In this document: piece after piece, positions 17,976 through 39,932 of the stretch
Layout: each line of letters opens with the position of its first letter
Numbering within the stretch: the stretch's first letter is position 1
IMG/VR virus record: IMGVR_UViG_3300032236_000765
Location: 1 to 64,000 of that record
DNA: 64,000 nt
Strand: one strand, 5' to 3'
From: a virus
The notes under the pieces: generated by a model
The model's database searches: none
Told to the model about the DNA's origin: nothing
The model's input: only the letters and a program-made list of their open reading frames with translations
Made by a program: the position numbers and the translations under genes

Positions 17976-17981
17976 ATTGTC

Positions 17982-18621: not shown

Positions 18622-18699
18622 TGGCAGCTCCTGAGGGATTCGAACCCCCGACTTCTACGTTCGAAGCGTAGCACTCTAAATCCGCTGAGTTAAGGAGCC
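18622..18699 (-). tRNA. tRNA-Arg(TCG)
   Basis: Loop CTTCGAA, A20, G73. Confidence 0.92.
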
Positions 18700-18702
18700 T
18701 AA

Positions 18703-18776
18703 TGGCTGGGGAACTAGGACTCGAACCTAGAATAACGGTACCAAAAACCGCTGTGTTACCATTACACCATTCCCCA
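18703..18776 (-). tRNA. tRNA-Gln(TTG)
   Basis: Loop TTTTGGT, U1-A72, G73. Confidence 0.95.
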
Positions 18777-18782
18777 ATGAAA

Positions 18783-18858
18783 TGGTGCCGCTTGCAGGAT
18801 TCGAACCTGCCACCTACTGATTACTAATCAGTTGCTCTACCAAATGAGCTAAAGCGGC
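18783..18858 (-). tRNA. tRNA-Thr(AGT)
   Basis: Stem ACTGA/TCAGT, loop TTAGTAA. Confidence 0.93.
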
Positions 18859-22551: not shown

Positions 22552-22580
22552 AATATAGCGGAATGGGTAACTCATGTCAA
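22552..22580 (-). promoter_or_regulatory. Early promoter (conserved-spacer class)
   Basis: TTGACA-tgagttacccattccgc-TATATT. Confidence 0.88.
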
Positions 22581-23593
22581 CCTTTTTGTACCAAAAAAAG
22601 CGGTCCGTCGATAAATTTATTTCTATCCTGATTCATCATTCCAGCTTGCATTTCTTTGATCATCTCAGGAGTCAGATGTCTAGCTCTCATCTGTGAATCA
22701 TGAAAGAATATATGAACTTCTACAAAAGCATCACCCTCTAACCGTTGGATAGCTATCATACGATGACGCCCTTCATGTCCTGTGACCCTAGCAGGTTGGA
22801 TGAAGTCTCCGTCTTCCCACTGAGCAGGAATCTTAACAATCAAGAAAGGGGCGCCCAGCCCGCCACCATTTTGTAGATGGTCGATGATATCATTTATCGT
22901 TTTTTGATTAGGATGTTTAATTGGTGCAGCTAATTGGAAGAATGTCGAAGGACGCATCAGCACACGCAATCCTAGGTAGTCTACGTTTTCATTGTTTGGA
23001 GTCTGTCCCCATCCATTCGCGTTGTCTACCTTGTATTCATCTAGCTCATTTTCTCTAGATGTAACAGCGAGTTTGTTCTTTATTCCTTCATCAACTGGAC
23101 TCTTGCTGATAGGAACTTTCTTACGATTGGTGAGAAAATAGGTATTGAACCAAGCTGTGCTTTCAACATCCCATTTACTCATAAACGTATTATTCCGGCG
23201 TTCCATGCCCTCTGGATTATGATGTATAGCATCATAATCTTTCTCTAACAATTGCCAGGGCATCTTAGTGAATAATTCTGCAGGATCTTTGATTTGGACA
23301 CCATATTTTCTAGCAATCATCATGGCATCACTGTCTGTGTTAATGACTAGTATTCGTGCACCTGGTCTGACATCCATCAATGTGCCTTCATCACTTACCC
23401 ATTCAGGCATCTCACCATAACACCAGTCTACCCAATCACTCGTATAACCATTCTTGACTTTTATAGCAGTGCTAGTCCATAACGCAGCATCAGGCTTCAG
23501 TGATGCTTCATTAGTCTTTACAGGACGTGGAACATATAACTGCGGACCTAAACTCACATTTTTGTCCTCAGCTACTAAATCAGATGCTCTCAT
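22577..23593 (-). CDS. Putative head-packaged two-domain protein (ART-like plus ParB/Srx-like)
   Basis: MRASDLVAE leader; LWTS...WDVES; GHEGRHRM. Confidence 0.55.
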   Translation of the reverse strand: MRASDLVAEDKNVSLGPQLYVPRPVKTNEASLKPDAALWTSTAIKVKNGYTSDWVDWCYGEMPEWVSDEGTLMDVRPGARILVINTDSDAMMIARKYGVQIKDPAELFTKMPWQLLEKDYDAIHHNPEGMERRNNTFMSKWDVESTAWFNTYFLTNRKKVPISKSPVDEGIKNKLAVTSRENELDEYKVDNANGWGQTPNNENVDYLGLRVLMRPSTFFQLAAPIKHPNQKTINDIIDHLQNGGGLGAPFLIVKIPAQWEDGDFIQPARVTGHEGRHRMIAIQRLEGDAFVEVHIFFHDSQMRARHLTPEMIKEMQAGMMNQDRNKFIDGPLFLVQKG

Positions 23594-24879
23594 TTTGTCA
23601 CCCTATATGCAGCCCACTTGTCACGACCTTTCCTCATGCCGATATGTCTATCTATATAAAAAGACATACCGTGGTCACTTTCTCGTTTTGACGGGAATTC
23701 ATTCCCTACATTTATAGAAATAGCTTTTGGCAGATAGCTCAAATCATCACCGGAATCCATACCAAATTCCGGGGATAGCAATCCTTTTATAGTTTTAACA
23801 GTTGGACGGATAGCTTCATTCATATCAATCCTAAATCTGCGAGCTTCATCATTCCAGTTTAAATAATCATCCTTATTTTCGACTGCTTTATCCCAATCAA
23901 TATCACCATGTTCATCGGTGTATTTCTCTTGCATCTGTTGATAGTAGTACTCATCATTTATTTCCCATTCGGATAATACTTCCCAAAGATATTCTTCAGC
24001 AAGGTCTGCGATCTGGTTAATATAATTTTGCAATTCTTCATCAGGACACATGATAATCATGTCTTTAGTTTCAGGTTCATTTTGCAAAAAGAATTCATAT
24101 AGTTCTGGAAATCTCTTAGTGAGCAGGACATATAGATTTATCTCTTCATCCTCTTCATTCATGAATTGTCCCGAAGGGAAATGTAATTGATACTTCTCAC
24201 CTTCATGCCGTGGCTTCTTGGGAATGAGAATATACATCTTACCCTGATTGTTGTAGTAGTCGAAATAGTTTTTTCCTTGAGTAGCAGCAGTACACCAACG
24301 AGTACCCCTACCGTATCGACAAGCAGCAGCCTCATCTTCTGGTACGACAACTAATACGTTGCCATCTTCATAGACTTTTGAGGCTTTGCCTTTTTCTTCT
24401 TCTTTTTTCTTATCCCCACCTTCGATCTTATCTAGATCATATTGGTTGATCATAGTGTCTTCAAAGTCTTTATAAGTCTTGAATCGATTAATATCATTAT
24501 GCTCAGACTTGATCATTCTGCGTCTTTTACCGATATCATATATTCCGAGAAGATTTCTACGATTCATATCTTCCATCTTAAGGCCGCCCTTGGCATATAC
24601 TTTTGCTAACCAAGGAGTGTACGCTTTGTTTGGAGTAGGGTCCTTTTCTTCAATTGCACTTAATATCTTATCAATCATCTCTGCTCGTTGTGCAGGTGTG
24701 ATCACTGCATTTATCTGTTCAGGTGTTGCATTTGCTAGCAGTCGGAGCCTTGTCCAGATATTTGCCAATCCATATGCAGTGGCCCCTCTATCTTGAGCAA
24801 AAGCCGTTAATAAACGATTACCAACTTGATTGGCTGTGATCTGTCTATTATACTCAAGGAGAAATTCTCTGGCTCGCAT
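23590..24879 (-). CDS. Putative head-packaged protein
   Basis: MRAREFLLE leader; YG.GTRWCT, KYQLHF.SGQFM motifs. Confidence 0.65.
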   Translation of the reverse strand: MRAREFLLEYNRQITANQVGNRLLTAFAQDRGATAYGLANIWTRLRLLANATPEQINAVITPAQRAEMIDKILSAIEEKDPTPNKAYTPWLAKVYAKGGLKMEDMNRRNLLGIYDIGKRRRMIKSEHNDINRFKTYKDFEDTMINQYDLDKIEGGDKKKEEEKGKASKVYEDGNVLVVVPEDEAAACRYGRGTRWCTAATQGKNYFDYYNNQGKMYILIPKKPRHEGEKYQLHFPSGQFMNEEDEEINLYVLLTKRFPELYEFFLQNEPETKDMIIMCPDEELQNYINQIADLAEEYLWEVLSEWEINDEYYYQQMQEKYTDEHGDIDWDKAVENKDDYLNWNDEARRFRIDMNEAIRPTVKTIKGLLSPEFGMDSGDDLSYLPKAISINVGNEFPSKRESDHGMSFYIDRHIGMRKGRDKWAAYRVTK

Positions 24880-24888
24880 GGCTAATAA

Positions 24889-25884
24889 TTAGCCTCTATC
24901 ACGACCGAAAAGATGATTCATTTCTTCATCACTAGCAACATCTTCACTATGATATGCAGTAGGATAAAGTCTCTTGATTCGTGCTACTTCTTCTGGAATG
25001 TTCCAGCCGCCGCGGGAAATTCCCATATCAATAGAAGCATTTTTTAATTCTTCAGAACGGCTTTCAAGTTCAGATACAATATGTTTCATCAGTCCAGGAA
25101 ATAACTTAGTGAATTGTTCTTCACCTACGTTATAGTCCTGTGTTGCATTCTTTAACTGGCGGGTAGCTGAGTGCATCTGCCACTTGCCGTTTTTATTATT
25201 CATATTTTGTTTATCGATAATGCTAACGATAGGACCGTCTGATGAATAACGGTTGAACCAGTTCAACCCGCTACTACTTCCAGTACAGAATTGACCTTGA
25301 TGTCCTTCTGCGTTATTGAATGTATAGCAAGAGCCATAGTTTAATGGAACAATGACATAATATCTATCATTGTCAATAAGCACGATCTGTTTTGCATTCT
25401 TCTTCATTGCTGCTAGTTTTTCAGCATCAGCAATCTTTCTCAATGCATCACGATATTTGTCTTTGCGTATAACTTTTTGTAATTTTTCGATTGAAGAAAA
25501 TTTATTAAAGTCCTGATCATTAGGATCTAACAAACCACGAACACTAAGTGCTTTCCAAGAACCTAATGCATCTCCCCCTTCACCGTTGATTTCTTCATAA
25601 TTATTGATATGATTGACATACAGTTTTGTTAACCAAGCATCAAACTTGCCGTCTCTTGATAAGTCACCGTAGTTAGTAAGAGCCAGTGTACGGTCGATCA
25701 ATTTACTCCATAGCTTAACCACATCTTCATCACTTGGCTTAGGGCCTAGACTTGCTAGTGCTGGTGCCGGAAAGGTTGAATCATGTTTTACAGCCAAAGC
25801 CAGCATTTTAGTCATTCTTGGATCTTTAAGAATCTTTTCTGCATGGTTTGCTTCTGTTAATCTAGTTTTTATTAAGCGTCTCAT
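24889..25884 (-). CDS. Putative head-packaged protein, distant paralog of 23590..24879
   Basis: RLTEA leader; DFNKF, FCTG, KWQMH..T.Q motifs. Confidence 0.65.
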   Translation of the reverse strand: MRRLIKTRLTEANHAEKILKDPRMTKMLALAVKHDSTFPAPALASLGPKPSDEDVVKLWSKLIDRTLALTNYGDLSRDGKFDAWLTKLYVNHINNYEEINGEGGDALGSWKALSVRGLLDPNDQDFNKFSSIEKLQKVIRKDKYRDALRKIADAEKLAAMKKNAKQIVLIDNDRYYVIVPLNYGSCYTFNNAEGHQGQFCTGSSSGLNWFNRYSSDGPIVSIIDKQNMNNKNGKWQMHSATRQLKNATQDYNVGEEQFTKLFPGLMKHIVSELESRSEELKNASIDMGISRGGWNIPEEVARIKRLYPTAYHSEDVASDEEMNHLFGRDRG

Positions 25885-25895
25885 GATTGTCCTTC

Positions 25896-26888
25896 TTATA
25901 GGTGTAATAGTACGTGTTTTAAATAGTTCATCAGTGTGACTAATTTATTTTGGTCACCGTTTGCAATATCAGCGACGACTTTTTTCATGCCCTCACTTCT
26001 ATCAGGTGAGTTAGAACGATAGCCACTACCTAAAGTGAAATTGCCGGTATCATCTGGGTAGTAATGACTTGCGGTCATATATAGCGCAGGTCTTAATCTT
26101 GACTTTAACTCAGCAGGCACTGATGCAGGATCATCGATGAGTCTTTCTCTGATATCACTCAATTTTTTTAATATCTGTAGCTTAATTTCTACTTTATTGT
26201 AAGCATCATTCTTTAGGGCTATACCACTAACACCTTTAACATCAGCGATTGCTTGATCGACGTATTTTAAAAATAATGGACGTAATTTATTATATATTGC
26301 TTCTAGATTCGTACTCATACTAGCAGTTGGGTCTAGCATAGTAGGATTATCAATCCTTCTAGCGCGTTCACGTTCATCACGCTTTTTCTCGACTTCACCT
26401 CTTGAACTTCTGCCATAGCCACCGGTACCTACAGAAGACCAATACCCCATGACTTTTCCTAAGTCTTCTTTCATATCACCTACTAGTGCGTTGATACTAC
26501 TTGAACGGAGTTTGCGAATTCCGTTACCGGTCGCAACCATTGCACGCCATTCAGAACCATCCCATTTTATTGCAGCGGTTCCTCTACTACCAGCAATCAA
26601 CACATAGTTAGGAGAACGCTCTTTAATATCCTTCCATGTTATTTTAGTTTCAGGCTTCCATTGTACATTATCCGGAATAGAAAGTTCACTATGGACATGT
26701 TGAATGAGCAAATCTGCATATGGGCTATTACGAACAGTCGAACTGATTGATGAGTCCTCATCTAGAATCTCATGCAAAACGTGGGATATAGCCTTATGAA
26801 ACATCTTACGTGCCGGATCATTGTTAGAACGTCTTGACGGTTGTAATGGTATGAATCTATTTTCTTTAAGTAGGTCTGATCTTCTCAT
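25896..26888 (-). CDS. Putative head-packaged protein
   Basis: Start revised to MRRSDLLKE; internal ILDED. Confidence 0.65.
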   Translation of the reverse strand: MRRSDLLKENRFIPLQPSRRSNNDPARKMFHKAISHVLHEILDEDSSISSTVRNSPYADLLIQHVHSELSIPDNVQWKPETKITWKDIKERSPNYVLIAGSRGTAAIKWDGSEWRAMVATGNGIRKLRSSSINALVGDMKEDLGKVMGYWSSVGTGGYGRSSRGEVEKKRDERERARRIDNPTMLDPTASMSTNLEAIYNKLRPLFLKYVDQAIADVKGVSGIALKNDAYNKVEIKLQILKKLSDIRERLIDDPASVPAELKSRLRPALYMTASHYYPDDTGNFTLGSGYRSNSPDRSEGMKKVVADIANGDQNKLVTLMNYLKHVLLHL

Positions 26889-26890
26889 TA

Positions 26891-27334
26891 TTATGCTCTT
26901 GTTGTCTTTAGAATGCTTCTGAGCATCCAATTGTGTTTGCCGTGAGCATCAATACGCTCTGCAATAAAGTTAGCGATTCCCTGTTCATCTGCTTCTTCTG
27001 CGACATGAAAAGCCTGTTTCCACATATGCAAAATCTTTAGATTATCATCGTATAGTTCTTGCATCATGAGTTCAGCACGAGGAACTTTAAGTTGATCTTC
27101 AACATGACTTAGTTCTGAGAGACGGGCGAGACTGCCTGGAGTATATACATCAAGTTGACGAATTATCTCAGCAGTACGATCAATTGTATTTCCGTAAACT
27201 TCTTCATAAAGATTACCTAAAAATTCATGGTATTGAGGGAAATCCGGGCCTTCGACATTCCAATGGAAATATTGCGTCTTAATTGAAAACGCATATACGG
27301 TGGCCAACATTGTCTTAAGAGTATCTGCTAACAT
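26891..27334 (-). CDS. dps: Dps/ferritin-like DNA-protecting protein
   Basis: FHWNVEGPDF..YHEF...LYEE, D..AE.IR.L, H.KH.WML. Confidence 0.92.
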   Translation of the reverse strand: MLADTLKTMLATVYAFSIKTQYFHWNVEGPDFPQYHEFLGNLYEEVYGNTIDRTAEIIRQLDVYTPGSLARLSELSHVEDQLKVPRAELMMQELYDDNLKILHMWKQAFHVAEEADEQGIANFIAERIDAHGKHNWMLRSILKTTRA

Positions 27335-27351
27335 TTAAAATATCCTATGAA

Positions 27352-27720
27352 CTATTTATCGTTTTTACTATTATTTGGTTTCTTATTTTTATACAGATGT
27401 CTTAATATAACCGAATCAGTATCTTCGTAAGTCATTGCAGTTATTCTACGAGGACCCTTGCGTTTGAACATACCGTACTCTTGTTCATAAGTAGTTGGTC
27501 CGCCGACCATAGAACCACCGCTATTACCAGCAGAGCCACCTCCCTGGCCAGTACTAGCGGTTTCTACGATACCTTCTGCTTGCAACTCACGCATAGCTTG
27601 CACTAACGGATGCACAAAAGGTTCGGGTTCAGTGATTTCTTCCGCAATGGAGTCTGATGCTTCTAGCATCCTCATTTTCTCTATGAGTGTGCTAATTTCA
27701 TCCACATACATTTTTGCCAC
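27352..27720 (-). CDS. Putative internal head protein
   Basis: Multiple hydrophobic-x-E sites; Gly-rich segment. Confidence 0.55.
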   Translation of the reverse strand: MAKMYVDEISTLIEKMRMLEASDSIAEEITEPEPFVHPLVQAMRELQAEGIVETASTGQGGGSAGNSGGSMVGGPTTYEQEYGMFKRKGPRRITAMTYEDTDSVILRHLYKNKKPNNSKNDK

Positions 27721-27751
27721 TTTTCCCTAATAAACCTTACTATCTCAAAAA

Positions 27752-30208
27752 TTATTTTTTCTTTTTGGTTACAAAGTCAGCAAGAGCCTTTGTGAATGTT
27801 GCGAGTGTCATACCGCCGGCGCCAACAAATGCACCTGCTGCTACCAACCCTTGAAAAAATTGAAACCATTCGTCAGGTCTCATATAAGGTATAAGCTGGG
27901 TCCAAGGAATTGATTCATCTAACATTTCTTCATTAGTTGTACCAGCCATCTTTGGCTTGAACTTGCGATATGATTGACCTGCATTTCCACCTTGACCCAT
28001 ACCGCTTGCATAAGCAGTGTCTTCAAATGTTCTGCGATCTCTCCAACCACCTGGTTGAGTTCCTACCGGTCCTGAAGTGTCTGGCATCTCTCGCATGACA
28101 CCTCTATTTGTGCGTGACATTGAACTGTTGTATGAACCTTTTGTGGGAATGCGTGAAGGTTTATAATTCATATTTTCAGCGACTTTTTTCGTTTTTAAAC
28201 TATTTGCATACTTTAGTATTTCATCTATTACACCGACTACTTTTTTTAATGGTACCTTTGACGCAAAAACTGTCTGTATGAATTTCATTACATTAGGATT
28301 TTTGCTTTTAACGGCTGCTTCCATCACATACTGCTTCATTGAACTTCTAGATATAGAATATTCTTCATTCAAGCCTATTGCATTGCCTAATGTATTCTTT
28401 ATAAATTTCAATAAGTTTATGAAGTTGTCTCCTTGACCCAAGGCTATGATTGCTGAAGCTGCAACAGCTCCCAATACTGGAGTTACTTTTTCTTTTATAA
28501 AGTTTTTAAGTTTTTCCCCTGTGCTAAAATCTGTCTTATCAGGATGAAACTCTCCGTATTCTCTCAATCTAGCTTCTTTCACTTTATTCTTTATTTGTCC
28601 ACGACGCTGGACCCCTGAATTCATAGTAGACTTCGTGGATTTGGGATTCTTACTTTCTCTATACATTGTGTTAGTCTCTTTCCTTCTAATTGTTTTTCTA
28701 CTGTCAGATCGGGATTCAAACTGATCAGTTCCTGGTATAGGGTGAACGATTGGATGGCATCCCTGCCAATACTCATGATCAAGTGCAGGTGTCCATGCCA
28801 TGAATTGAGCAGTGTCACCCTCTGTGCATTGCCTGCTTCTCCAGCCCATTTGACTTGATACTCTTTTGACTAATAATTGATAAAGTTTTCGTCTGCTTTC
28901 ACCGCTACCTGTAAATGTAACCCAGGTAGTATTAGAATTTTTAACAAAGTTAACAACATGGTGCATCACTGTGGCCAATACTTGAGCAGCCGCAGGCCCT
29001 AGATCACCTGTTAGATCATATTCACTCTCATTATCATTTACCCAGCGACTAAAACTTATTATTAGACCATGATTTTTATGTTGTTTAATAAAGCTAGCCA
29101 TACGTGTTGGAGAAATTATTTCGTCATAATAATATATGTTACGGTTATTACTATATAGAATTGCTAGTTCATAATCATGAACTACTTCTTTACCGGTGTT
29201 AGGATCAGTTACAGTTATTGCAAAATCTCCTTGTTGACCGTCTCTGAAACGGGTCCATTTGATCGGCAAAGGTTTGTCAAACAATTCGTTCAGTTGGTTT
29301 TCTTTTACATGCTTAGGCTTTTGGTGATGTTTTTTCATATTGATAGCGATTGCAGCTTGTTGTGCTGCATTTGCTGCTTCTTTTACACTCTCACTCTTAG
29401 TGCCCCAGTTCTTTGCACCCTTCTTACGGCATTGAACTAACGCACCACTAGCATATGCGCTTGGCCATACCTTGTAGCGACTTTTGACTTTGTAGTAGCA
29501 GGCATCTTGCTTCTCATTGATCATCGATTCAGGATACATACTGCCACCACATTCTGGACATTTCTGTCTATCTTCATTTTTCTTTCGGCCAGCACAATGT
29601 GCTTTCTGACTGAAGCCTTTTGGGTGTGAGCAATCAATACTACGCTTGTATTTTTCACTCCATTTTTCTTCTAACTCTTGTCCTTCATTTTTTACACAGT
29701 TAGGAACAGTCTTGCCGAACATCTTCTTGTTACCCTCTTTGTGATAACCCTTCCAGCAATTCTCATCCATCTGTTCTTCATTAGTCTTTTTCTTGGTAGC
29801 AACATTCTTTGCTGCACCGCGACGATCAGGATTTGGGTCTTCTCTGCGCTTCTTACTAGCAGCATATTTGCGACCCTTCTTACCTAAGTTCTGTGCTTTC
29901 TTTTGCGGCAAGCATTTTGGTTTACCTTCACTGTCACTACCCCTTGCACAAGCACCACGAATCTTTCCGTCTGGGCCAAAACGAACCCACTTCTCTTTGA
30001 ACCACTTGTGAAGATTTTCGTCTAGTTCGACCTCTTCATGTGTTTCAGTTCTGAGTTCGATTTCTTTTCTTGGAAATTTTTTCTTCATCTGTCTAAGAGC
30101 ATCTTCTGCTTCTTTAGGATCGACATATTTTGTTGCAGCTACACCGTCGATATACAGAACAAGTACCTGCTCAGATTCGTCAACAATGCCTTTCATGATA
30201 CTTGACAT
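27752..30208 (-). CDS. Modular internal-head polyprotein
   Basis: Short basic Cys-containing modules separated by LDE/MDE/LEE/INE/VKE/LNE. Confidence 0.7.
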   Translation of the reverse strand: MSSIMKGIVDESEQVLVLYIDGVAATKYVDPKEAEDALRQMKKKFPRKEIELRTETHEEVELDENLHKWFKEKWVRFGPDGKIRGACARGSDSEGKPKCLPQKKAQNLGKKGRKYAASKKRREDPNPDRRGAAKNVATKKKTNEEQMDENCWKGYHKEGNKKMFGKTVPNCVKNEGQELEEKWSEKYKRSIDCSHPKGFSQKAHCAGRKKNEDRQKCPECGGSMYPESMINEKQDACYYKVKSRYKVWPSAYASGALVQCRKKGAKNWGTKSESVKEAANAAQQAAIAINMKKHHQKPKHVKENQLNELFDKPLPIKWTRFRDGQQGDFAITVTDPNTGKEVVHDYELAILYSNNRNIYYYDEIISPTRMASFIKQHKNHGLIISFSRWVNDNESEYDLTGDLGPAAAQVLATVMHHVVNFVKNSNTTWVTFTGSGESRRKLYQLLVKRVSSQMGWRSRQCTEGDTAQFMAWTPALDHEYWQGCHPIVHPIPGTDQFESRSDSRKTIRRKETNTMYRESKNPKSTKSTMNSGVQRRGQIKNKVKEARLREYGEFHPDKTDFSTGEKLKNFIKEKVTPVLGAVAASAIIALGQGDNFINLLKFIKNTLGNAIGLNEEYSISRSSMKQYVMEAAVKSKNPNVMKFIQTVFASKVPLKKVVGVIDEILKYANSLKTKKVAENMNYKPSRIPTKGSYNSSMSRTNRGVMREMPDTSGPVGTQPGGWRDRRTFEDTAYASGMGQGGNAGQSYRKFKPKMAGTTNEEMLDESIPWTQLIPYMRPDEWFQFFQGLVAAGAFVGAGGMTLATFTKALADFVTKKKK

Positions 30209-31369
30209 TTATCTGTTCCTTAATCTGCGGTAGTTCTTATTATATAATTGTGCTTCATTTAACATTTTATTCCAAAAACGTTTTAAGCTTTCAGCAGTGA
30301 ATGATGGATAATCATCACCGTACATTACTTTCGTGTCTCTAGCTATAAAAGTCTTTATTTGACGTAGAACCGCATCCTCATCACCGCGCATACGAATCAA
30401 AAGTTGTAGTGTTAAAATAGGATCAAGAGGAACTGGGGCTTCGTTACGAATATAATAGTAAAGATTTGGAGCAAATTCTTTTATTTGTTGATAAGCATCA
30501 TCATGCTCGGAAGTGATAAATCCACCGGTTTGGTTCACGTTTGTGTTAGTATCACTGATTCTATGAGAATGACTTTCACCTACACCGCCACCTGCGATTA
30601 CACCTTCATGTGCATTATTATTTTCTTGTGCACTGATGAGATATTCAGTGACTCCGGTCATCATACCCTTGATCTGCCCGATCTTTTCTGAGACCCATTC
30701 AGGAAAATGATCACTGTTCTCTAATCTATTATGTAGCTCTTTGGCATTGCGAGCGATAGTTCTTAGGCTATTCTTTAGAGTCTCACCCTCGCGGTCTGAT
30801 TTATCTGGGTCAAATGAATGGAAGCCAGTCTTTAATCTACGACCTTGTCCTGGTACAAGAATCAATTCGTCTTCTTCTAGACGAGCTTCATGTACTTCTT
30901 TTTTGATTTCACACTTACTATTAGGATGCTTATTCTGCATGATTGTTACTTGATCTTGTGCATCTTTTATATTCACGGACTTAGTTACTGGCTTACCATT
31001 AATATAGACAACATAAACTTGTTCGCTCTCTTTCAAGCGTTGAGCTTCATGTACTTCTTTTTTGATTTCATACTTACGGTCAGGATGCTCTTTCCTCATT
31101 ATAGAAATCTGTTCTTGTGCATCTTTTTCAGTCGTAGATTTAGTTGCTGGTTTACCATTAATATATATTACGTGAACCTCTTCGCTTTCTTTCAAGCTAT
31201 TAACAAACGGCTTACTTGTCTTCTTACCGGTAAATAGATTACCGACTTTCTTACCACTGTACACACCTTTACCCACAGCAGAACGCTTCATTGGTCCTCC
31301 GTTCATAGGAGCTGCTACAGTAGCGACACTACCGGATGTTGTTGACTCACAGATTTCAGTAATTCTCAT
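30209..31369 (-). CDS. Modular internal-head polyprotein
   Basis: MRITEICES leader; tandem ~50-aa repeat. Confidence 0.7.
   Translation of the reverse strand: MRITEICESTTSGSVATVAAPMNGGPMKRSAVGKGVYSGKKVGNLFTGKKTSKPFVNSLKESEEVHVIYINGKPATKSTTEKDAQEQISIMRKEHPDRKYEIKKEVHEAQRLKESEQVYVVYINGKPVTKSVNIKDAQDQVTIMQNKHPNSKCEIKKEVHEARLEEDELILVPGQGRRLKTGFHSFDPDKSDREGETLKNSLRTIARNAKELHNRLENSDHFPEWVSEKIGQIKGMMTGVTEYLISAQENNNAHEGVIAGGGVGESHSHRISDTNTNVNQTGGFITSEHDDAYQQIKEFAPNLYYYIRNEAPVPLDPILTLQLLIRMRGDEDAVLRQIKTFIARDTKVMYGDDYPSFTAESLKRFWNKMLNEAQLYNKNYRRLRNR
30885..31195 (-). repeat. Tandem duplication of a ~50-codon module (third copy at ~30030-30180)
   Basis: ESE.V.V.YI.G..ATK....K.A....M.K..P..K.EI..E.HE, three copies. 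Confidence 0.85.
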
Positions 31370-32436: not shown

Positions 32437-35400
32437 TTATTTTTCTTCTAAGTAATCTGTATTTTCGGATAATTTTTTAGTTACTTGTTTCTTTATCCAT
32501 TTATCCGGAATCATATGATGCTTCTTAACAAAATCATCATGCAGTTTGTCACCAGTCAAGTGGTATTCTTTGCAGATCAATTGCATCATCTTATCGATCT
32601 TATCATAATTGAGCTTTATACCTCGATCTTTAGCTTTCAATAATGCTTTCTCTAGTTGTTCAACACTACCGGATTTTTCTTTACCAGTAACATGTGTTGG
32701 CTTCATCTTACCTTTTAGTTTAACTTTCGCTTCACTTAGTAATCTGACAAACTTAGCTTTTTGCCTTAGAGTAGCTTCTCCCAGCAGAGGTTTAATACGA
32801 TCAATGAACTCTTTGATTTCTTGTTGCTTCATACCTGCTGCGGCAGTATTCATCAATGTCTTGACCCAGTCGATACCTAATTTTTTAGTGTCAAATGCCT
32901 TTGACCATAGATTTAATTTATCATGTTCACTGGCATTTGGATCCTTCAGAATATCACGGAGCATAGTGAAACTAATACCAGTACCACCTTTGTCTGCTTC
33001 ACGTTCTGTTCTGACAGTCTCGAAGTCTACTTGATCTTGTGTACCGCCATACTTAGCAACAGCTTCCGGATCCTTCATTCTCTTTGAGAGAGAATCCATC
33101 CACTTCTTCATGCTTTCGTAGCGATCACTTCCTACAAGAAGAATGATCTTATTGTAAGGACTGTTTTCTGGAATAACAAGTTCCTTTTCGATCTTCTTCA
33201 TTGGAGTTCCACCTGGATTCCATATCTGTATATTATTGCTATAGTCAGGATATAGCTTACGAAGTGTCTTTAACTTCATATCAGGTGGAATAGGATCGTC
33301 TGGTCCAACTACAGGGCTAACAAAAATATAAGGGTCACCCTTTACACTATTTGCAAGAGCAATAGTTTGATTGATTAATTGTTGATGTCCTCTGTGACCA
33401 ACAAAGCTACCGATAGTCACAACAGCAGGTTTGGTACGATTGCTTGCTACTGTGCTGCTGGCTGTTTTCTTTGCAGCCATTTTATCTTTCATATCGCTGC
33501 TTGTTACTTTAACAAGCATACCGTTGGGTAGATTAATCACGAGACCTTCGATTATCTTACCTAACTGATCCTTGCCTTCTAGCCTTGGGCTATTGATAAT
33601 AGCATCACTTAATTCTTTACGAGCGTGGGTTAAAATCTCTTTTGCTTTAGCCTTTTGTGCAGACTCACCGCGTGACTTCACAGCAGCTAGTAATGCATCA
33701 GCATTATTAACGATAGGATCTACAATAGAACTCACATCTAGATCACGTTGCTTCAATTGATTATTAACAATCTTGATTTCTTTGGTGCTATCTCTTAACA
33801 ATTCATATTTGATCTTAGCTGCGTCGGGTCTTGGTTCACCAGTGCTATAAGTTTTCACACTGAATGGAACCAAAGTCATGATCGTACCTAGCTTCTTTTG
33901 ATCATATGGAATATTAACAAATACGATACCGTTATCAGATCGTTTACCCATAGGCATGAATAACATTTCTGCTTGTACGATAGTATCATTCGGTAATCGC
34001 TTGATGAAGTCAGAAGTCACGATAGTCTTCAAGGCTTCGTCATATAATTTTGTGAAAGAAAGGCGCTCGGGGTCTTGCCCCATGCTACGGCCATATTTTT
34101 CAAAGTCGCCGTAATTCTCAGCATACTTAGGATCAGTTACCTTTGAAGTCATGAAGAATGGCTTGCCTTGTTCATCCTTACCGAAACGAACGCCTGCACC
34201 GTCTACCTTGAGATTGATAGGAGCACCATCAAGTTTACCGCCCATACCTGCAATCTCTTGGCACATACGAATGAAGTCAGCATCCTTCATCTCAACACTG
34301 CTGCCTGGACTATAGATATGCGGAATTCCCTTGCGTTTATAATCAGGTGCAGCTTCGTCAAGTGCTCTCTTTGCCATATTCTTGACGATCTCATTAGTGT
34401 TTTCACTATCATCTGTCGATGTCATCTTGTATCCAGCATAATAATCCTTCATCATCTGATCAAGATTACTAGGCTTAGGCATCTTTAGCATATTAAACAT
34501 ATGATTGATAGCTGTAGTTTTTTCTGCTCGGTCTTTACCGGGGTTATTCTTATACATTCCCTGAGCACCTGGACCAACTACTTTCAACAAGAATGCATGT
34601 ACAACGTGCTGTTTTTCTTCAGGTGAAAGTAGATGGTTCATTACATCAAGCAAGCCGGAGAATGACCAGAATTTATTTGATATCTCTCGTGCTTGCTTTG
34701 GGTCTAATCTCTTACCGAGAATAGTTTGAAAAATCTTACCGATATCTTGAATATAACCCGAGGTCGGTGCTGCTCGCATGACTGGTTTACCATCTTTATA
34801 TTCTGGTTTTCCAGTCATTCCATCCATAACAGGTTCATACTTTGCTCTTAATCCACCGCCTTCTTTAGACGATACTGCAAAGCTATACATATTGTCTACT
34901 GTGAGTACATCTTCTTCTTTTCGTGCTTTACCACGACCGACCAACTTACGCAAGTAAAATTCTTGACGAGTCAAAGAGGTAAATGCTTGAATCAATAGTT
35001 TATGGAATACACCTTTGACTCCTGATTGCAAATCATCCCAAGATGAGCTATGGCTGAATCTTGCCCAATCAGTTGGTTTATTATTTACGAATTCTACAAA
35101 CTCAAAGTCAATCTGAACTTTTATAGGAGGATCCTGTAGTTCCCACAAAGAACTGAACTGTTCATTGCCGCGTTGAAATCCGCGAAGAATTGAAGGGCCG
35201 ATCTGCTTATCTTCATTCTCGGTTAGGAATTCTCTTAATTCTAATTCTAATTCTTTGTCTACCATCGTATCCATATCGCCGACGGTTGGCTTCTTGGCTA
35301 CGAATGTTTCGTCAGGAATACCCTTGACATTGAAGAAGTGCAAACTAGAACCACTCAGGAATTCTCCGCTACTTAATAATTCAGGACTCCATAATGGTTT

Positions 35401-35583
35401 TCTAAATTTTCTAGCAAATGCAGCATCAATGGACATGAGCAGGTTATTGAGAATAGGTACGATATATTTTCTATTCGTTACCTTAAGATCGAGGTGTTGC
35501 GCCTCATGGCCGCGAATAGCGAGATTGCCACCTTCTAGCAAACGACGTTTACGATTTTCTGCAATACCCCTTGAAGTCTTCAT
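32437..35583 (-). CDS. Three-domain protein: Pol-beta-type nucleotidyltransferase, RNA-ligase-like and HIGH cytidylyl/adenylyltransferase
   Basis: SGSS..GDMD..QID; KVDG..QAEML..EGLV..VK; GHRGH..VGSDR..GIS.T.LR. Confidence 0.7.
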   Translation of the reverse strand: MKTSRGIAENRKRRLLEGGNLAIRGHEAQHLDLKVTNRKYIVPILNNLLMSIDAAFARKFRKPLWSPELLSSGEFLSGSSLHFFNVKGIPDETFVAKKPTVGDMDTMVDKELELELREFLTENEDKQIGPSILRGFQRGNEQFSSLWELQDPPIKVQIDFEFVEFVNNKPTDWARFSHSSSWDDLQSGVKGVFHKLLIQAFTSLTRQEFYLRKLVGRGKARKEEDVLTVDNMYSFAVSSKEGGGLRAKYEPVMDGMTGKPEYKDGKPVMRAAPTSGYIQDIGKIFQTILGKRLDPKQAREISNKFWSFSGLLDVMNHLLSPEEKQHVVHAFLLKVVGPGAQGMYKNNPGKDRAEKTTAINHMFNMLKMPKPSNLDQMMKDYYAGYKMTSTDDSENTNEIVKNMAKRALDEAAPDYKRKGIPHIYSPGSSVEMKDADFIRMCQEIAGMGGKLDGAPINLKVDGAGVRFGKDEQGKPFFMTSKVTDPKYAENYGDFEKYGRSMGQDPERLSFTKLYDEALKTIVTSDFIKRLPNDTIVQAEMLFMPMGKRSDNGIVFVNIPYDQKKLGTIMTLVPFSVKTYSTGEPRPDAAKIKYELLRDSTKEIKIVNNQLKQRDLDVSSIVDPIVNNADALLAAVKSRGESAQKAKAKEILTHARKELSDAIINSPRLEGKDQLGKIIEGLVINLPNGMLVKVTSSDMKDKMAAKKTASSTVASNRTKPAVVTIGSFVGHRGHQQLINQTIALANSVKGDPYIFVSPVVGPDDPIPPDMKLKTLRKLYPDYSNNIQIWNPGGTPMKKIEKELVIPENSPYNKIILLVGSDRYESMKKWMDSLSKRMKDPEAVAKYGGTQDQVDFETVRTEREADKGGTGISFTMLRDILKDPNASEHDKLNLWSKAFDTKKLGIDWVKTLMNTAAAGMKQQEIKEFIDRIKPLLGEATLRQKAKFVRLLSEAKVKLKGKMKPTHVTGKEKSGSVEQLEKALLKAKDRGIKLNYDKIDKMMQLICKEYHLTGDKLHDDFVKKHHMIPDKWIKKQVTKKLSENTDYLEEK

Positions 35584-35585: not shown

Positions 35586-35972
35586 TTAATAACTAAGCTT
35601 TACGTAATTAACTCCGCCGTTTTGGAAATCTACAATTTTAGCTCTCATATAAACGAAGTTACCTTCAATGTTGGTATACATTGAAGCATTGGATGCGATC
35701 TGTGGGGCAGAATTAGCAGGAGCATATGCATTAGCATCTAGCTCATATACTTTAAACCAATCAGTATCTGCTGGAGTAGTAGCTAATGTAGCTTCGATCA
35801 CGATATTACCTACACAGCTTGTTAGACTGATGTTTACAGTCTGCAAGTCTCTGTTGCCTAGATAATATGCTGCGGCAGGTTGTGAATTACCTACGACTGT
35901 GTAGGGTGCACCGTTGCCTGGATTATTATACGCTGTTTGCGGAAGAAGGATCAGAGTAGTACCTTGAGACAT
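35586..35972 (-). CDS. Hypothetical beta-rich structural protein
   Basis: G.IVIEATLA..P...DWF...GNFVYMRAK. Confidence 0.65.
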   Translation of the reverse strand: MSQGTTLILLPQTAYNNPGNGAPYTVVGNSQPAAAYYLGNRDLQTVNISLTSCVGNIVIEATLATTPADTDWFKVYELDANAYAPANSAPQIASNASMYTNIEGNFVYMRAKIVDFQNGGVNYVKLSY

Positions 35973-36136
35973 TATGCTCTCTCGACCTCTACTAAGACAC
36001 CTTCTCCTGCGAGTTCTTGTGCTACCTGCTCTAATGCAGCTTGCACATCTTCTGTGACAATTGCATCTGTCGGATCGTTGTCCTTTACAAGTTTCGACAA
36101 CTTGATGACAACCACATCCTCAATCATTTTAGCCAT
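35972..36136 (-). CDS. Small hypothetical protein (54 aa, MAKMIEDVVV...)
   Basis: GGAG SD, GATAAATA upstream, TAATG coupling to next gene. Confidence 0.7.
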   Translation of the reverse strand: MAKMIEDVVVIKLSKLVKDNDPTDAIVTEDVQAALEQVAQELAGEGVLVEVERA

Positions 36137-36172
36137 AAAATACTCCGTTATTACAGAGTATTTATCTTAGTC

Positions 36173-36856
36173 CTATTTCTTTTCTAATTTGTAGGATTTG
36201 CCAAGTATCCCCGGAAACATCAGATGCATCATAGTCAAGTTCTTCTCATCATTGTAGTTGAAATACTGACCAGTATGAAACCATGCCTTCTTGAATTCTC
36301 TACGCAGCGCCATTTTAAGTGCATCGCTAGGAGAAACATCAGGAGTACGGTTTAGATAATCAAGAATATCTTTTCTGATTGATCCTTCTCTATTTACATT
36401 CCTACAATAAACCCTATATACGGCAGGAGGATCCTTTTTAAAATAGATCACTCCTGCCGGCATGGGTGTTACATGGGTAATCGTAGCAGCAGGATAAAAG
36501 GATAGCAGTTCGTTTATAATACTGATATCATTCGTGAATACACCAGCACTGTCTCGTTCATGCCGCAGACAAACCCTACTATCATTCTTATACTTGTTTC
36601 GGAAATTAATATATTTCTCAATCAGATCATAATTTATTTTAGCTACGTTTATTTTTCTACCTTCATACCATCTAGGATTCTCAGCTTCTTCCTCAATACG
36701 AGCCTTGATACGTTCATTGTATCCTTGAAAATCACTCACATAAGAAGCCCAGTACAACTCTGGAATTTCCAGAGTTGCTCTATAAGCGAACTTCTTATAG
36801 AAGAGTGTTAATCTGTCTTTGCTCTTAATTTTCGAGTTGGATAATGCCGTCATCAC
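36173..36856 (-). CDS. Hypothetical protein
   Basis: 227-aa ORF downstream of clpA; start uncertain. Confidence 0.65.
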   Translation of the reverse strand: MMTALSNSKIKSKDRLTLFYKKFAYRATLEIPELYWASYVSDFQGYNERIKARIEEEAENPRWYEGRKINVAKINYDLIEKYINFRNKYKNDSRVCLRHERDSAGVFTNDISIINELLSFYPAATITHVTPMPAGVIYFKKDPPAVYRVYCRNVNREGSIRKDILDYLNRTPDVSPSDALKMALRREFKKAWFHTGQYFNYNDEKNLTMMHLMFPGILGKSYKLEKK

Positions 36857-39095
36857 CGATCCTTGCAGCCTGTTTTTGAGTCACATTAAATACAATCTCA
36901 CCGTTTTCCATAACTGCCATGATATTTGCGTTATTGATACGTTCAAACAAAATCTTCTTAGAGAGCGGCACACGAACAACCTCATCGATCTTTCGTGCTA
37001 GAGGACGTGCACCCATCTTGCTATCATATCCAATTTCTGCAAGGTGATCAACCACTGACTCAGCTAGATTGAGAGTGATATTATGCTTGTCTAGTAGCGG
37101 CTTCTTGAGTTCTTCCACAAACTTGATAACAATCTTCTTGATAGAAAGATGATCCAGCTTGTTGAACTTGCAGACCATATCAAGGCGATTTCGGAACTCA
37201 GGCTTGAAGAACTGCTTGAGAGCCTTATCATCTTCACCTGTTCGTTCAAGGCTACCGAATCCGATATTGTTTCGTTCGTTGTCAGCCGAACCTAGATTTG
37301 AAGTCAGGATGATGAGGGTATTCTTCATCGAAACCTGCTTACCATTCGATCCAGTGATGACACCTTCATCCAACATCTGCAAGAAGATGTTAAAGATATC
37401 TGGGTGAGCCTTTTCAACTTCATCGAACAGCAGGATTGAGTGCGGGTTCTTGCTCAGGTCTGAAATTAGGCGTCCACCTTGTACTTGTGAATCACCAAAG
37501 CCCACATAACCCGGGGGAGGACCAATCAAGCTGCTTACGCTATGCTTCTCACTGTACTCAGACATATCGTACTTGAGAAGCGGCATATCCAAATTCTTAG
37601 ACAGCAGCTTGGCCAATTCTGTTTTACCCGTGCCCGTCGGGCCCAAGAACAAGAAGCTCGCAATCGGTTTCTTATCGTTACCGATTCCCGCAAACGAGAC
37701 ATACACACGTTCAAGAACCTTATCCACAGTCTCATCCTGACCGTAGAGCTTGTTCTTGACATTCATTTCAAGGTGATTGATGCGATCATAATTATCACCG
37801 CTCAACTTGTCAGCAGGAACACCAGTGAACTTCTCCACCTGTTCATGAATGAGTTCTTTGGTGATCATCGCATCCTTGTTTTCGAGCACCCGCTGCTTTG
37901 CACATGCAGCATCGATCAGGTCAATAGACTTGTCAGGATTCTTACGATCATGAATATAACGATCTGCATTGTCAACCGCAGCTTCGATTGCTTCCTCAGT
38001 GATGTTCACTTCATGGAATTCGCTCAGACGAGCTGCGAGACCATTGAGAATGCGAATCGTAGAATCACGAGAAGGTTCATCAATCGTTACCTTGTAGAAT
38101 CGACGCATCAATGCACGATCCTTCTCAAACGATTCATAGAACTCTTCCCAAGTTGTAGAAGCAATCACCTTGAGATTACCCTTAGTAATAGCAGGCTTCA
38201 ACATGTTTGCGAAGTCTGTTCCACCGCCGTTACCTGTATTGCCTGCACCCTGCATTGTATGTGCTTCGTCGATGAACAGAATCGCTTTCTTCTTTACAGA
38301 AAGTGCTTCAAGGACATTCTTGACCTTTTCTTCAAAGTCACCGCGATAGCGAGACCCTGCTAGCAGCGAACCAATCTCAAGTGAATAGAGTTCGTAGCCT
38401 GATAAGAATTCAGGAACTTCATCATCCACGATTGCATTAGCGATTCCTTCTGCGATTGCAGTCTTACCGACACCCGGGTCACCGACCATCAATACGTTGG
38501 ACTTGAAACGCTTTGCGAGAACATTAATGATATCATTGATCTCTGACGCACGACCAATGACCGGCTCAAGCTTGCCCTTACGAGCAAGGTCGGTGAGATT
38601 GATCGTGTATTCTTCGAGGATCTCGTCAGCTTGATTATCAGAAATATTACCAACAAAGTCACCGCCCTTGTAATGGCGCTGCCAGTGAACGAGGAACTCA
38701 CTTTTGGTGACACCATACTTCAGAAGGAAGTAATGACCGTGGCTGTTATTCTCATGGATGATGCTCATATACAAGTCAATCGTTGTGACTTGTCGGCGAC
38801 CGCTGAACAGAACCTGCGTGACACTGCGATTCATCACACGTTCAAGCGTGTTGGTTCGCTTAGGAAGGATATTAGGATCCTTGCTTTCGATAGCATGGAG
38901 ACCATTCAAGTATGCTTCTACTTCTTGAATCATTAGTTCGATTTCAACACCGAAACTATTCAGGCATTTCTTGAACGGTGGGTGAGAGATGAGTGACCAT
39001 AGTAGATGTTCTACTGTGCAATATTCATGCTGGCGTTCCTTTGCAGAACCTATTGCACGTTCAATGATATTTTCAATCTCAGGGGAAGGTTGCAA
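36825..39095 (-). CDS. clpA: ClpA-like AAA+ unfoldase
   Basis: Clp-N domain, two Walker A motifs (GDPGVGKT, GPTGTGKT), GYVG pore loop, IGF loop, no M-domain. Confidence 0.93.
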   Translation of the reverse strand: MQPSPEIENIIERAIGSAKERQHEYCTVEHLLWSLISHPPFKKCLNSFGVEIELMIQEVEAYLNGLHAIESKDPNILPKRTNTLERVMNRSVTQVLFSGRRQVTTIDLYMSIIHENNSHGHYFLLKYGVTKSEFLVHWQRHYKGGDFVGNISDNQADEILEEYTINLTDLARKGKLEPVIGRASEINDIINVLAKRFKSNVLMVGDPGVGKTAIAEGIANAIVDDEVPEFLSGYELYSLEIGSLLAGSRYRGDFEEKVKNVLEALSVKKKAILFIDEAHTMQGAGNTGNGGGTDFANMLKPAITKGNLKVIASTTWEEFYESFEKDRALMRRFYKVTIDEPSRDSTIRILNGLAARLSEFHEVNITEEAIEAAVDNADRYIHDRKNPDKSIDLIDAACAKQRVLENKDAMITKELIHEQVEKFTGVPADKLSGDNYDRINHLEMNVKNKLYGQDETVDKVLERVYVSFAGIGNDKKPIASFLFLGPTGTGKTELAKLLSKNLDMPLLKYDMSEYSEKHSVSSLIGPPPGYVGFGDSQVQGGRLISDLSKNPHSILLFDEVEKAHPDIFNIFLQMLDEGVITGSNGKQVSMKNTLIILTSNLGSADNERNNIGFGSLERTGEDDKALKQFFKPEFRNRLDMVCKFNKLDHLSIKKIVIKFVEELKKPLLDKHNITLNLAESVVDHLAEIGYDSKMGARPLARKIDEVVRVPLSKKILFERINNANIMAVMENGEIVFNVTQKQAARIGDDGIIQLEN

Positions 39096-39119
39096 TCTTT
39101 AAATCCTTTTCAATTTTAT

Positions 39120-39926
39120 TTAGTTTGAGGTATTCTGATGTTGCTTGATAGTATCTATGATGTCAGAGTTTATATTAGCAGGGATGAATGGCTTAAGCAA
39201 GAGTATTTGGTCTCCTCGCATACCATTTCCTGCAGGCATACCATATCCACCTAATCTAATCTGTTGATATGGTTGCGTTCCTGCAGGTATGTTGACTTCT
39301 AAGGTACTTCCACTTAATGTCGTAAATTCTACCTTAGTACCTACAATCAAATCAAGCACCGATATAGAGACATTTGAATATAGATTATCGCCTTCACGGT
39401 TAAACTTGAGATCAGGCTGGATAACAAATTCGATTATGAGTGAAGCTTCATCCAATACATTATCATAACGCACGTTTTGACCTGATTGAATTCCTTCAGG
39501 TATCTTTATGGTAATCGCTTTCATACCCATAGGGGTACCTAGCTGTAGTATCTGTTCTGCCCCATTATAAACATCAAGCAATGATATGGATACGCGGGTG
39601 CGATAAACCTGTCGCTGTGAGGTTTGAGATTGGTGAAATGGATTGTTTTGTCCAAATGCTTGAGAGAACAATCCATTTAAATCAAATCCATTAATATTAA
39701 ATGAAAAACCTCCCGGATGATTCATAAATTGTTGTGGAGCAGGATTATCATACGCAGCACGTTTCTGAGGATCGCTCAGTGTATCATATGCTGTTTGGAT
39801 TTCTTGGAATTTGTTTTGATCGCCGCCCCTATCAGGATGGTGCTGCATCGCAAGTTTGCGATATGCTTTTTTGATTTCTTCTGCTGAGGCGGTACGCTGT
39901 ATGCCTAGAGTATTATAATGATCCAT
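39120..39926 (-). CDS. dnaJ: DnaJ/CbpA-type co-chaperone
   Basis: J-domain HPD, G/F region, C-terminal domain, no Zn finger. Confidence 0.92.
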
Positions 39927-39932
39927 TGTCAT

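Follow-up and report, generated by a model that had tools for sequence, protein, structure and literature searches.

A possible head-loaded polyprotein joining three predicted nucleotidyl-transfer enzymes in big T4-like phages

We analyzed a 64,000-nucleotide stretch of viral DNA (the window), positions 1 to 64,000 of IMG/VR record IMGVR_UViG_3300032236_000765, a 75-kb virus fragment with a CheckV completeness of 22%. The window encodes P0001, a protein of 1,048 amino acids (aa) in which three predicted nucleotidyltransferases (NTases) are joined in one chain: a Pol-beta-type enzyme, an RNA-ligase-like adenylyltransferase and a HIGH-superfamily, cytidylyltransferase-like enzyme. A short leader precedes them and a basic tail follows. 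We tentatively read P0001, with a confidence slightly below an even chance, as a fill-and-seal polyprotein that is loaded into the phage head, cut by the prohead protease and ejected, with RNA (slightly favored) or phage DNA as the substrate. The features on which this reading draws are as follows (↓ marks a predicted cut).

32437-35583, minus strand: whole open reading frame (ORF) of P0001, 1,048 aa, a single uninterrupted frame with the stop codon included.
35533-35583, minus strand: leader, aa 1-17 (MKTSRGIAENRKRRLLE), a predicted capsid-targeting propeptide with x-E sites IAE9 and LLE17, to be removed before G18.
34354-35532, minus strand: N domain, aa 18-410, predicted Pol-beta-superfamily NTase of the Pol X palm-and-thumb or terminal uridylyltransferase (TUTase)-like kind, with G78-S79, D103, D105 and D159/E161.
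34354-34362, minus strand: L408-D-E410↓A411, a prohead-protease site predicted from conservation, within the disordered linker that connects the N and middle domains.
33448-34353, minus strand: middle domain, aa 411-712, predicted ATP-dependent RNA-ligase-like adenylyltransferase with motifs I (K459-V-D-G), III (AEM), IV (E679-G) and V (K693-V-T-S).
32809-33447, minus strand: third domain, aa 713-925, HIGH-superfamily (cytidylyl/adenylyl)transferase-like, with G-H730-R-G-H733, VGSD and GGTGISFTMLR.
32731-32817, minus strand: junction linker, aa 923-951, with candidate sites IKE925↓F, LGE936↓A and LSE951↓A.
32440-32730, minus strand: tail, aa 952-1048, a basic mobile module of 97 aa (PHROG 10346) with an isoelectric point (pI) of 9.6.

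P0001 has more than 1,000 homologs in metagenome protein sets. A word-indexed search returned 436 proteins at E ≤0.001, and the family comprises 1,087 cluster representatives (50% clustering, E ≤0.001), 215 of them below 1e-30. Hundreds of metagenome proteins carry all three enzymes in one chain. Among cultured phages, tblastn gave only partial matches with identity below 32%, and the whole protein had no match in cyanophages at E ≤1e-5. The family is confined to big T4-like phages, and we found no description of it in searchable papers. BLAST against the retrieved homologs delimits a conserved core from about aa 15 to aa 918-956, beyond which similarity stops. Standalone counterparts exist for each of three blocks (aa 11-387, 411-709 and 715-920), the last of which is frequently fused to the middle block in other proteins.

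Conservation was counted, unless otherwise stated, in a MAFFT alignment of 155 full-length homologs. Every motif listed in an earlier sequence-only reading of this DNA is present in the ORF and is conserved across these homologs: LLE↓GG (15-19), SGSS (77-80), GDMD (102-105) and QID (157-159) in the N-terminal part; LDE↓AA (408-412), KVDG (459-462), QAEML (537-541), EGLV (679-682) and VKVTS (691-695) in the middle; GHRGH (729-733), VGSDR (817-821) and GISFTMLR (869-876) in the third domain; and LGE↓A (934-937) and LSE↓A (949-952) at the junction. Conserved in at least 80-95% of the homologs are GSS, VGDxDT, QxD/E161, K459xDG, AEM, EG, KVTS, GHxGH, VGxD and GGTGxSxTxxR. The conserved columns are those of the predicted catalytic motifs, namely FLSGSS, VGDxDT and QxDxE in the N block, LKxDGxGxRFG, AEM, FVxIxYD, EG and KVTS in the middle block, and GHxGH, VGxD and GGTGxSxTxxR in the third.

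The AlphaFold2 model of the N domain, built from a 64-sequence input, has a predicted local distance difference test score (pLDDT) of 92.1 and a predicted template modeling score of 0.88, with disorder at aa 1-16 (pLDDT <50) and aa 390-405 (pLDDT 46-53). Foldseek against the PDB returned Pol beta, Pol mu, Pol lambda, MenT, SpoT and FAM46, at probabilities up to 0.99 and E-values of 2e-3 or weaker. VIA-align against 48,161 chains peaked at Z 8.1 (TUT7), and almost every one of the 50 rows is a Pol-beta-superfamily NTase. In a closer VIA comparison, Pol mu reached Z 8.3 (root mean square deviation (rmsd) 3.4, 169 residues aligned, model residues 22-305 on palm and thumb), tied with TUT7 at Z 8.2. 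Alignments to the palm and thumb of family X enzymes span 159-181 residues at Z 6.4-8.3. G78-S79 start a helix (78-83), D103 and D105 start a strand (103-109), and D159/E161 lie on a strand (155-163); these catalytic residues are at least 90% conserved in 64 solo homologs and in the 155 full-length ones. The order hG[GS], [DE]x[DE], third carboxylate that typifies the superfamily is thus present, and the uniform list of matches together with the conserved triad leads us to assign the modeled domain to the Pol-beta-superfamily NTase fold.

No Pfam family, RlaP included, was matched by the N domain of P0001 or by any of the 64 solo homologs. The Pfam models of Pol X were likewise unmatched in these sequences, and fingers and an 8-kDa domain were not identified. 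A sequence-profile search of the PDB returned nothing for either the N domain or the middle domain. Membership of the N domain in RlaP (PF10127) was considered and rejected, as the profile matched neither the 64 homologs (E ≤0.1), nor P0001 (E ≤1), nor G000-G003. DUF6267, which follows the ligase-like domain in P0213, was also tried as a relative of the N domain and was rejected (hhalign probability 0.05).

The middle domain was modeled with a pLDDT of 95.8. Its first Foldseek matches are the Naegleria RNA ligase NgrRnl (E 5.7e-4, probability 1.00) and T4 Rnl1 (E 8.2e-4), followed by archaeal DNA ligases, T4 Rnl2 and Trl1. With VIA-align, NgrRnl ranks first (Z 10.8, 192 residues aligned, rmsd 3.6), and T4 Rnl2 (Z 9.5 and 9.1), REL1 (9.3), T4 Rnl1 (8.5), and Rnl3 and Trl1 (both 8.3) come ahead of DNA ligases (≤8.2) and capping enzymes (≤6.6); the first 43 rows all belong to the ligase/capping superfamily. 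The ligase motifs occur in sequence order and are at least 80-95% conserved (K459-V-D-G, A-E539-M, F-V-x-I-x-Y-D, E679-G, K693-V-T-S). The middle domain of P0001 has no Pfam match, to PF09414 (Rnl2/DraRnl-type) or otherwise, and one of 39 family members matches Pfam RNA_ligase below the cut-off (E 5.9e-5). Neither an OB domain nor another known C-terminal ligase domain follows; the HIGH domain is there instead. Because of the structural matches and the conserved K459xDG and later motifs, we regard the modeled domain as a covalent nucleotidyltransferase of the ligase type, with nick-sealing RNA ligases as its closest structural matches and with a predicted activity.

The assignment of the third domain as HIGH/cytidylyltransferase-like is supported by sequence comparison. 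PHROG 3041, annotated as cytidyltransferase, matches it at E 7.9e-16. Pfam FAD_syn scores 20-22 bits (cut-off 27) and is also sub-threshold in 12 of 23 and 16 of 39 relatives; NCBIfam gives a weak FAD-synthetase motif match on P0001 (E 8e-4). A profile match in the PDB, to RibF (E 1e-4), is confined to the HxGH stretch, and the neighbors in the ESM Atlas are viral CTP_transf_like clusters (score 0.93). Both G-H730-R-G-H733 and G-G-T-G-I-S-F-T-M-L-R876 (of the ISxT..R type) are at least 90% conserved. NMNAT models weakly match a syntenic protein in record G001, whose HIGH domain is of a different type. The three superfamilies that had been proposed from the letters alone were therefore recovered, Pol-beta-type and RNA-ligase-type by predicted fold and HIGH by sequence; the per-domain AlphaFold and Foldseek check suggested with that proposal returned NTase and ligase folds for the N and middle domains, with the motif residues conserved.

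Outside the fused proteins, counterparts of the enzymes are encoded side by side in cultured phages. In Xanthomonas phage BUDD (L017 6019-9368) an NTase homolog, a 333-aa gene, a ligase-like homolog and a CTP_transf_like gene lie head to tail. The same order is repeated in Stenotrophomonas phage Moby (L107 3109-6226, CPT_Moby_048-051), again with the cytidylyltransferase-like gene last, and hidden Markov model (HMM) matches there have E 6e-32 for the N domain and 4e-20 for the ligase-like domain. The second gene of these operons (about 320 aa) belongs to no family, and the two versions are not alike by BLAST. In both phages the NTase begins M-G-G-N, without a leader. By fusion and by operon, the gene arrangement indicates that the three predicted enzymes are a functional unit. 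Vibrio phage phiKT1024 encodes a 484-aa KTDG protein (L018 8501-9955) and an annotated tRNA nucleotidyltransferase less than 5 kb from a leaderless N-domain homolog. The KTDG protein was considered as a member of the P0001 ligase-like family and was rejected.

The N-terminus of P0001 carries a predicted capsid-targeting leader. Leader statistics were taken from 218 homologs with a GGN motif near the N-terminus, of which 166 have a leader of at most 25 residues, 19 have a longer extension and 33 start M-GGN. Within the 155-homolog alignment E17-G18-G19-N20 is invariant among non-gap residues. Where a leader is present, P3 at the predicted cut site is Leu, Ile, Val or Met in 172 of 177 sequences and P1 is Glu in 170 of 176. 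The leaders are variable in sequence and disordered, yet about 97% end in [LIVM]-x-E, exactly where leaderless homologs start; typical examples are MKKFKQFLKE↓GGN and MRAREFITE↓GGN.

Similar sites recur farther along the chain. The linker before the ligase-like domain is disordered and of variable length, and nearly all members have L/I/V-x-E↓A in it (position 408 is Leu, Ile or Val in 138 of 142, 410 is Glu in 148 of 150, and 411 is Ala in 113). The candidate sites at the junction with the tail are less uniform: Ile, Val or Leu at 923 in 136 sequences and Glu at 925 in 104; Leu at 934 in 84 and Glu at 936 in 49; Leu at 949 in 95, Glu at 951 in 56 and Ala at 952 in 85. No [LIVM]-x-E-type site was found between the ligase-like and HIGH domains; thus the two should stay joined.

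T4 internal proteins have a 10-residue N-terminal capsid-targeting sequence that is removed by gp21 (PMC10229621). In T4 Alt the cuts are at ITE-6 and LTE-619, and cleavage after Glu is common to all of these proteases (PMC5694885). As syntenic records G001 and G002 have only linker and tail in common with P0001, and not the Pol-beta and ligase domains, we repeated the protease search on records that hold full-length homologs. Peptidase_S77, the T4 gp21 family, is above the Pfam cut-off in four of ten such partial IMG/VR records (27-62% complete), and also in two syntenic records. Gene 1-56 of Campylobacter phage vB_CcoM-IBB_35 (39251-40417, 44,446 Da) matches the N-domain HMM at E 6e-90 and has the leader MKLSELMFILE↓GGN. 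Its product is among 38 virion proteins identified by electrospray ionization tandem mass spectrometry, with 17% coverage (PMC3322345 supplementary tables). Cytidyltransferases are frequently detected in cyanophage virion proteomes, although the S-CREM2 authors caution about co-purification of abundant enzymes (PMC10665884). In addition, some homolog tails carry LysM, SLT or tail-lysozyme domains, which are typical of ejected proteins. The proposal of head targeting and protease release is therefore supported indirectly, by the conserved leader and linker sites, the protease gene in relatives and the IBB_35 virion homolog. Virion presence is known for this N-domain homolog; packaging, cleavage and ejection are what we infer for P0001 itself.

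At least six more minus-strand ORFs of the window (22577-31369 and 58551-61499) start with leaders like capsid-targeting sequences that end hydrophobic-x-E (MRASDLVAE, MRAREFLLE, MRRLIKTRLTE, MSSIMKGIVDE, MRITEICE and MKDLLNKLSQIE). The leader-bearing ORFs suggest a large set of putative head cargo genes.

According to the reading that we tentatively favor, P0001 would be expressed late and loaded into the prohead by its T4-type N-terminal leader (aa 1-17). A gp21-family prohead protease would cut the polyprotein after Glu in [LIVM]-x-E motifs and release three products: a 45-kDa Pol X/TUTase-like NTase (aa 18-410), a 57-kDa fusion of the RNA-ligase-like adenylyltransferase and the HIGH-type NTase (aa 411 to about 925-951), and the 11-kDa basic mobile module (aa 952-1048). 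The pieces would exit the capsid with the DNA and act ahead of any phage gene expression. The NTase would add missing nucleotides at a 3'-OH end or gap and the ligase would seal the nick via a Lys459-AMP intermediate, the substrate being broken RNA such as tRNA (slightly favored) or nicked or gapped phage DNA. The HIGH domain may make or use an adenylylated or cytidylylated small molecule. We infer all of these enzymatic activities and substrates. RNA is slightly favored because RNA ligases rank first for the middle domain and because some homolog tails carry P-loop kinase and HD domains, which might heal ends. The Pol-beta NTase RlaP works beside RNA ligases (PMC7824862; bioRxiv 10.64898/2025.12.29.696909).

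Several observations weigh against this reading. The structural Z of about 8 for the N domain is in the middling range of the tool, and the HIGH domain stays under the Pfam threshold, with support from sequence only; moreover, the fill-and-seal scheme yields no role for it. Virion detection is limited to an N-domain homolog and does not extend to the full-length fusion, and a prohead protease gene was not found in the 75-kb, 22%-complete record of the window itself. Leaderless homologs occur in BUDD, Moby and phiKT1024, so the enzymes can work unpackaged and the chemistry is not tied to injection. RNA-repair partners were not found among the neighbors conserved across 80 IMG/VR loci; these neighbors are uninformative on RNA or DNA repair, and thus context does not settle the substrate. 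Finally, the window shows no enrichment of the exact T4 late consensus TATAAATA (9 matches, 5.7 expected), so the late-promoter evidence is weak.

The same packaged and processed polyprotein may instead act on the phage's own DNA, as a minimal system for repair of nicks, gaps and restriction damage at entry that resembles base excision repair or non-homologous end joining. We think this unlikely, but DNA is a serious rival substrate because it is the Pol mu/beta palm-and-thumb matches that cover the most residues. The longest N-domain matches are to Pol mu, Pol beta, Pol lambda, TdT and African swine fever virus (ASFV) Pol X (159-181 residues aligned; 169 for Pol mu at Z 8.3), although TUTases tie with Pol mu. 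For the middle domain DNA ligases match too (Z 7.1-8.2), but they are outranked by RNA ligases (Z 10.8-8.3); RNA_ligase is the sole Pfam match in this domain's family, and the OB or DNA-binding domain of DNA ligases is not evident. The protein would sit beside DNA in the head, and ParB-like and deaminase domains occur on some homolog tails; however, these phages are not known to package nicked DNA.

P0001 could also be an ordinary cytoplasmic multi-enzyme rather than capsid cargo, with the leader and L-x-E linkers conserved for folding or regulation. This would fit the leaderless homologs in non-structural operons of cultured phages, the virion detection of an N-domain homolog and no fusion, the missing protease gene in the window's own record and the co-purification caution of the S-CREM2 authors (PMC10665884). 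It sits poorly with a disordered, variable leader that ends in [LIVM]-x-E in about 97% of cases right where leaderless homologs begin, with the IBB_35 homolog in virions, with the gp21-type protease in relatives, with at least six neighboring genes that have the same kind of leader, and with peptidoglycan hydrolase domains on some homolog tails. We regard a purely cytoplasmic role as distinctly unlikely.

Very unlikely is a kit for small nucleotides, in which an NMNAT- or FMNAT-like HIGH domain and the other enzymes rebuild NAD or another cofactor, or make or destroy signals, against NAD-depleting or signal-based defenses. In its favor, the HIGH domain is most similar in sequence to FAD synthetase and cytidylyltransferase-like families, NMNAT models give weak matches on the syntenic G001 protein, RelA/SpoT-type HD hydrolase domains occur on some homolog tails, and the Pol-beta superfamily includes cGAS/CD-NTases and alarmone synthetases that are present among the N-domain structural rows. 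Against it, the rows of CD-NTases and alarmone synthetases are lower (Z 5.2-6.7) than those of Pol X and TUTases; a full motif set clearly marks the middle domain as ligase-type, a class of enzymes that act on polynucleotide ends; and we saw no partner of the Nampt, Adps or Namat kind in the window. The more specific functions put forward in the sequence-only reading, namely tRNA end repair tied to a tRNA cluster, NMNAT-type NAD regeneration and an anti-defense kit, were not borne out, given the lack of RNA-repair neighbors, a Pol mu as close as the TUTases and the leaderless operons.

The C-terminus differs from the core in its variability. The basic character of the tail, already recognized from the letters, was confirmed by its pI over aa 952-1048. 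Copies that are 65-81% identical occur on 33 other proteins with unrelated fronts (leaderless HIGH NTases, DUF6267, DUF6934, GNAT or no known family), and 25 of the 33 end with the copy; we conclude from these comparisons that the 97-aa tail is a mobile cassette. In a 259-kb relative the syntenic slot (L012:9437-11071) is occupied by a 544-aa HIGH NTase that shares the linker and tail of P0001, and that record encodes no Pol-beta or ligase-like homolog. A Tox-SHH match in the tail (Pfam E 0.11, 22 of 96 profile positions) was treated as noise. Homolog tails that extend at least 120 residues past the core (n = 94) fall into 44 unrelated types by greedy clustering. Pfam recognizes Amidoligase_2, NTP_transf_2/Polbeta, HD_4/HD, Zeta_toxin/AAA_33, LysM+SLT+Phage_lysozyme2, PG_binding_1, GP88, DUF6321 and DUF6934 in some of them, and precomputed domains include ParBc and dCMP deaminase.

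It is possible, though rather doubtful, that the core is an injected fill-and-seal machine for nucleic acid repair that doubles as a delivery chassis, with a hypervariable C-terminal slot for interchangeable effector cassettes freed by the prohead protease. The cassettes, on this equally doubtful view, may be kinases, HD hydrolases, amidoligases, deaminases, ParB-like domains, peptidoglycan hydrolases and, as in the window, small basic modules that are mobile. If so, the family would correspond, in phages, to polymorphic toxin systems, with delivery starting from the capsid interior. An 818-aa ORF of the window (27752-30208, minus strand) contains DUF6934 and short modules (RREDPNPDR..., CWKGY) that are found again in tails of further predicted cargo polyproteins.

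The P0001 gene is the last of a run that begins with a small ORF (35972-36136) and continues with a 128-aa ORF. Ahead of the run is the following element.

36159-36165, minus strand: ATAAATA, T4-late-promoter-like, 29 nt upstream of the small ORF 35972-36136.

Such T4-late-promoter-like ATAAATA elements lie 12-36 nt upstream of minus-strand start codons, at 36165, 31405, 45418, 58478, 63464 and 27359. Just upstream (36825-39932, minus strand) lie genes for a double AAA+ ATPase of 756 aa that resembles ClpA/ClpB and for a 270-aa DnaJ-like protein. Neighbors conserved across the 80 IMG/VR loci are ClpA-like, DnaJ-like, Dps-like, DNA polymerase B, GH19 and deaminase genes, with ClpA-like syntenic with the family gene in 54 and DnaJ-like in 44. 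Also present in the window is a Dps/ferritin-like protein (26891-27334, minus strand; PHROG ‘DNA binding protein’), a homolog of which directly follows the family gene in 22 of the 80 loci. Very large minus-strand ORFs encode 2,438 aa (51145-58461) and 883 aa (47839-50490, without a PHROG match), and a GH19-type endolysin (50503-51123) adjoins both. The tRNA array first noted as a 31-tRNA cluster is present; however, ARAGORN counts 29 genes (7812-18858, minus strand), including Ile(TAT), Arg(TCG) and Thr(AGT).

The P0001 family is of interest because it includes two enzyme families that are covered by no Pfam model. If the proteins are packaged, capsids would deliver active nucleic acid repair or modification enzymes together with shuffled effector modules before gene expression, and the T4 internal-protein idea would extend beyond small inhibitors to complete enzyme pathways. 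The evidence added here consists of the virion detection in IBB_35, the operons of BUDD and Moby, the tally of tail types and the mobility of the tail. Cultured phages offer handles, with CP220/IBB_35 suited to packaging and BUDD and Moby to the pathway of three genes. The compact Pol X-like NTase and the minimal RNA-ligase-like enzyme may serve as reagents.

Several known systems share parts of this organization. The pairing of a minimal palm-and-thumb Pol-beta-type enzyme with a nick-sealing ligase is also seen in ASFV Pol X with ASFV ligase, Pol mu with Lig4 and kinetoplastid TUTase with REL1, proteins that rank near the top of the structural matches to the N and middle domains. Identity to P0001 is 10-14%, however, and no 8-kDa/HhH or OB domain was identified in P0001; judged from the models, the likeness appears to be one of fold and pairing, not of family membership. 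RNA repair by RlaP beside RNA ligases and T4 Pnk/Rnl tRNA repair are also close. With RlaP the P0001 family shares a Pol-beta-superfamily NTase that is genetically coupled to an ATP-dependent RNA-ligase-type enzyme, here by fusion and operon. Before ligation, RlaP extends damaged RNA 3' ends by one or two nucleotides (bioRxiv 10.64898/2025.12.29.696909). Unlike RlaP, the N domain of P0001 is not PF10127 and is structurally nearer to Pol X and TUTases. In P0001 itself the ligase-like domain falls outside the Pfam RNA-ligase models, the core has no kinase or phosphatase healing enzyme, and a HIGH NTase is always attached in the P0001 family. The ‘cytidyltransferases’ in virions of T4-like cyanophages (S-CREM2, S-CRM01; PMC10665884) are HIGH-type NTases, as is predicted for the third domain, and have been proposed to enter the host, but they are separate proteins annotated by similarity to NMNAT.

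The closest parallels concern delivery. T4 IPI-III and Alt have a short N-terminal leader ending (I/L)-x-E, and Alt, like P0001, has a further x-E site toward the C-terminus (cut at ITE-6 and LTE-619; PMC5694885). Some partial genomes of relatives encode a gp21-family protease, and neighboring genes with similar leaders are clustered. In contrast to the T4 proteins, the cargo is a chain of 118 kDa in which three predicted nucleotidyl-transfer enzymes are followed by a module, and predicted cut sites between its domains would make it a polyprotein. Its domains are unrelated both to the IPs and to Alt, an ADP-ribosyltransferase, and on the P0001 side packaging is shown for one domain, in a homolog. 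Polyvalent proteins (Iyer et al., 2017; PMC5512222) similarly combine several disparate enzymatic domains in one polypeptide that is predicted to enter the host with DNA, and the P0001 family resembles them in its variable accessory domains (ParB-like, Pol-beta NTase, zeta/P-loop kinase, HD, peptidoglycan hydrolases). The survey of polyvalent proteins does not include the P0001 architecture, nor does it associate its domains with RNA ligases (PMC5512222), and none of the polyvalent hub domains (MPTase, ArdC-N, MuF and others) was found in P0001 by Pfam. Delivery would also differ, as P0001 would use a T4 capsid-targeting sequence and cutting by the prohead protease. We would class the P0001 family as a variant both of T4 capsid-targeted cargo and of polyvalent proteins.

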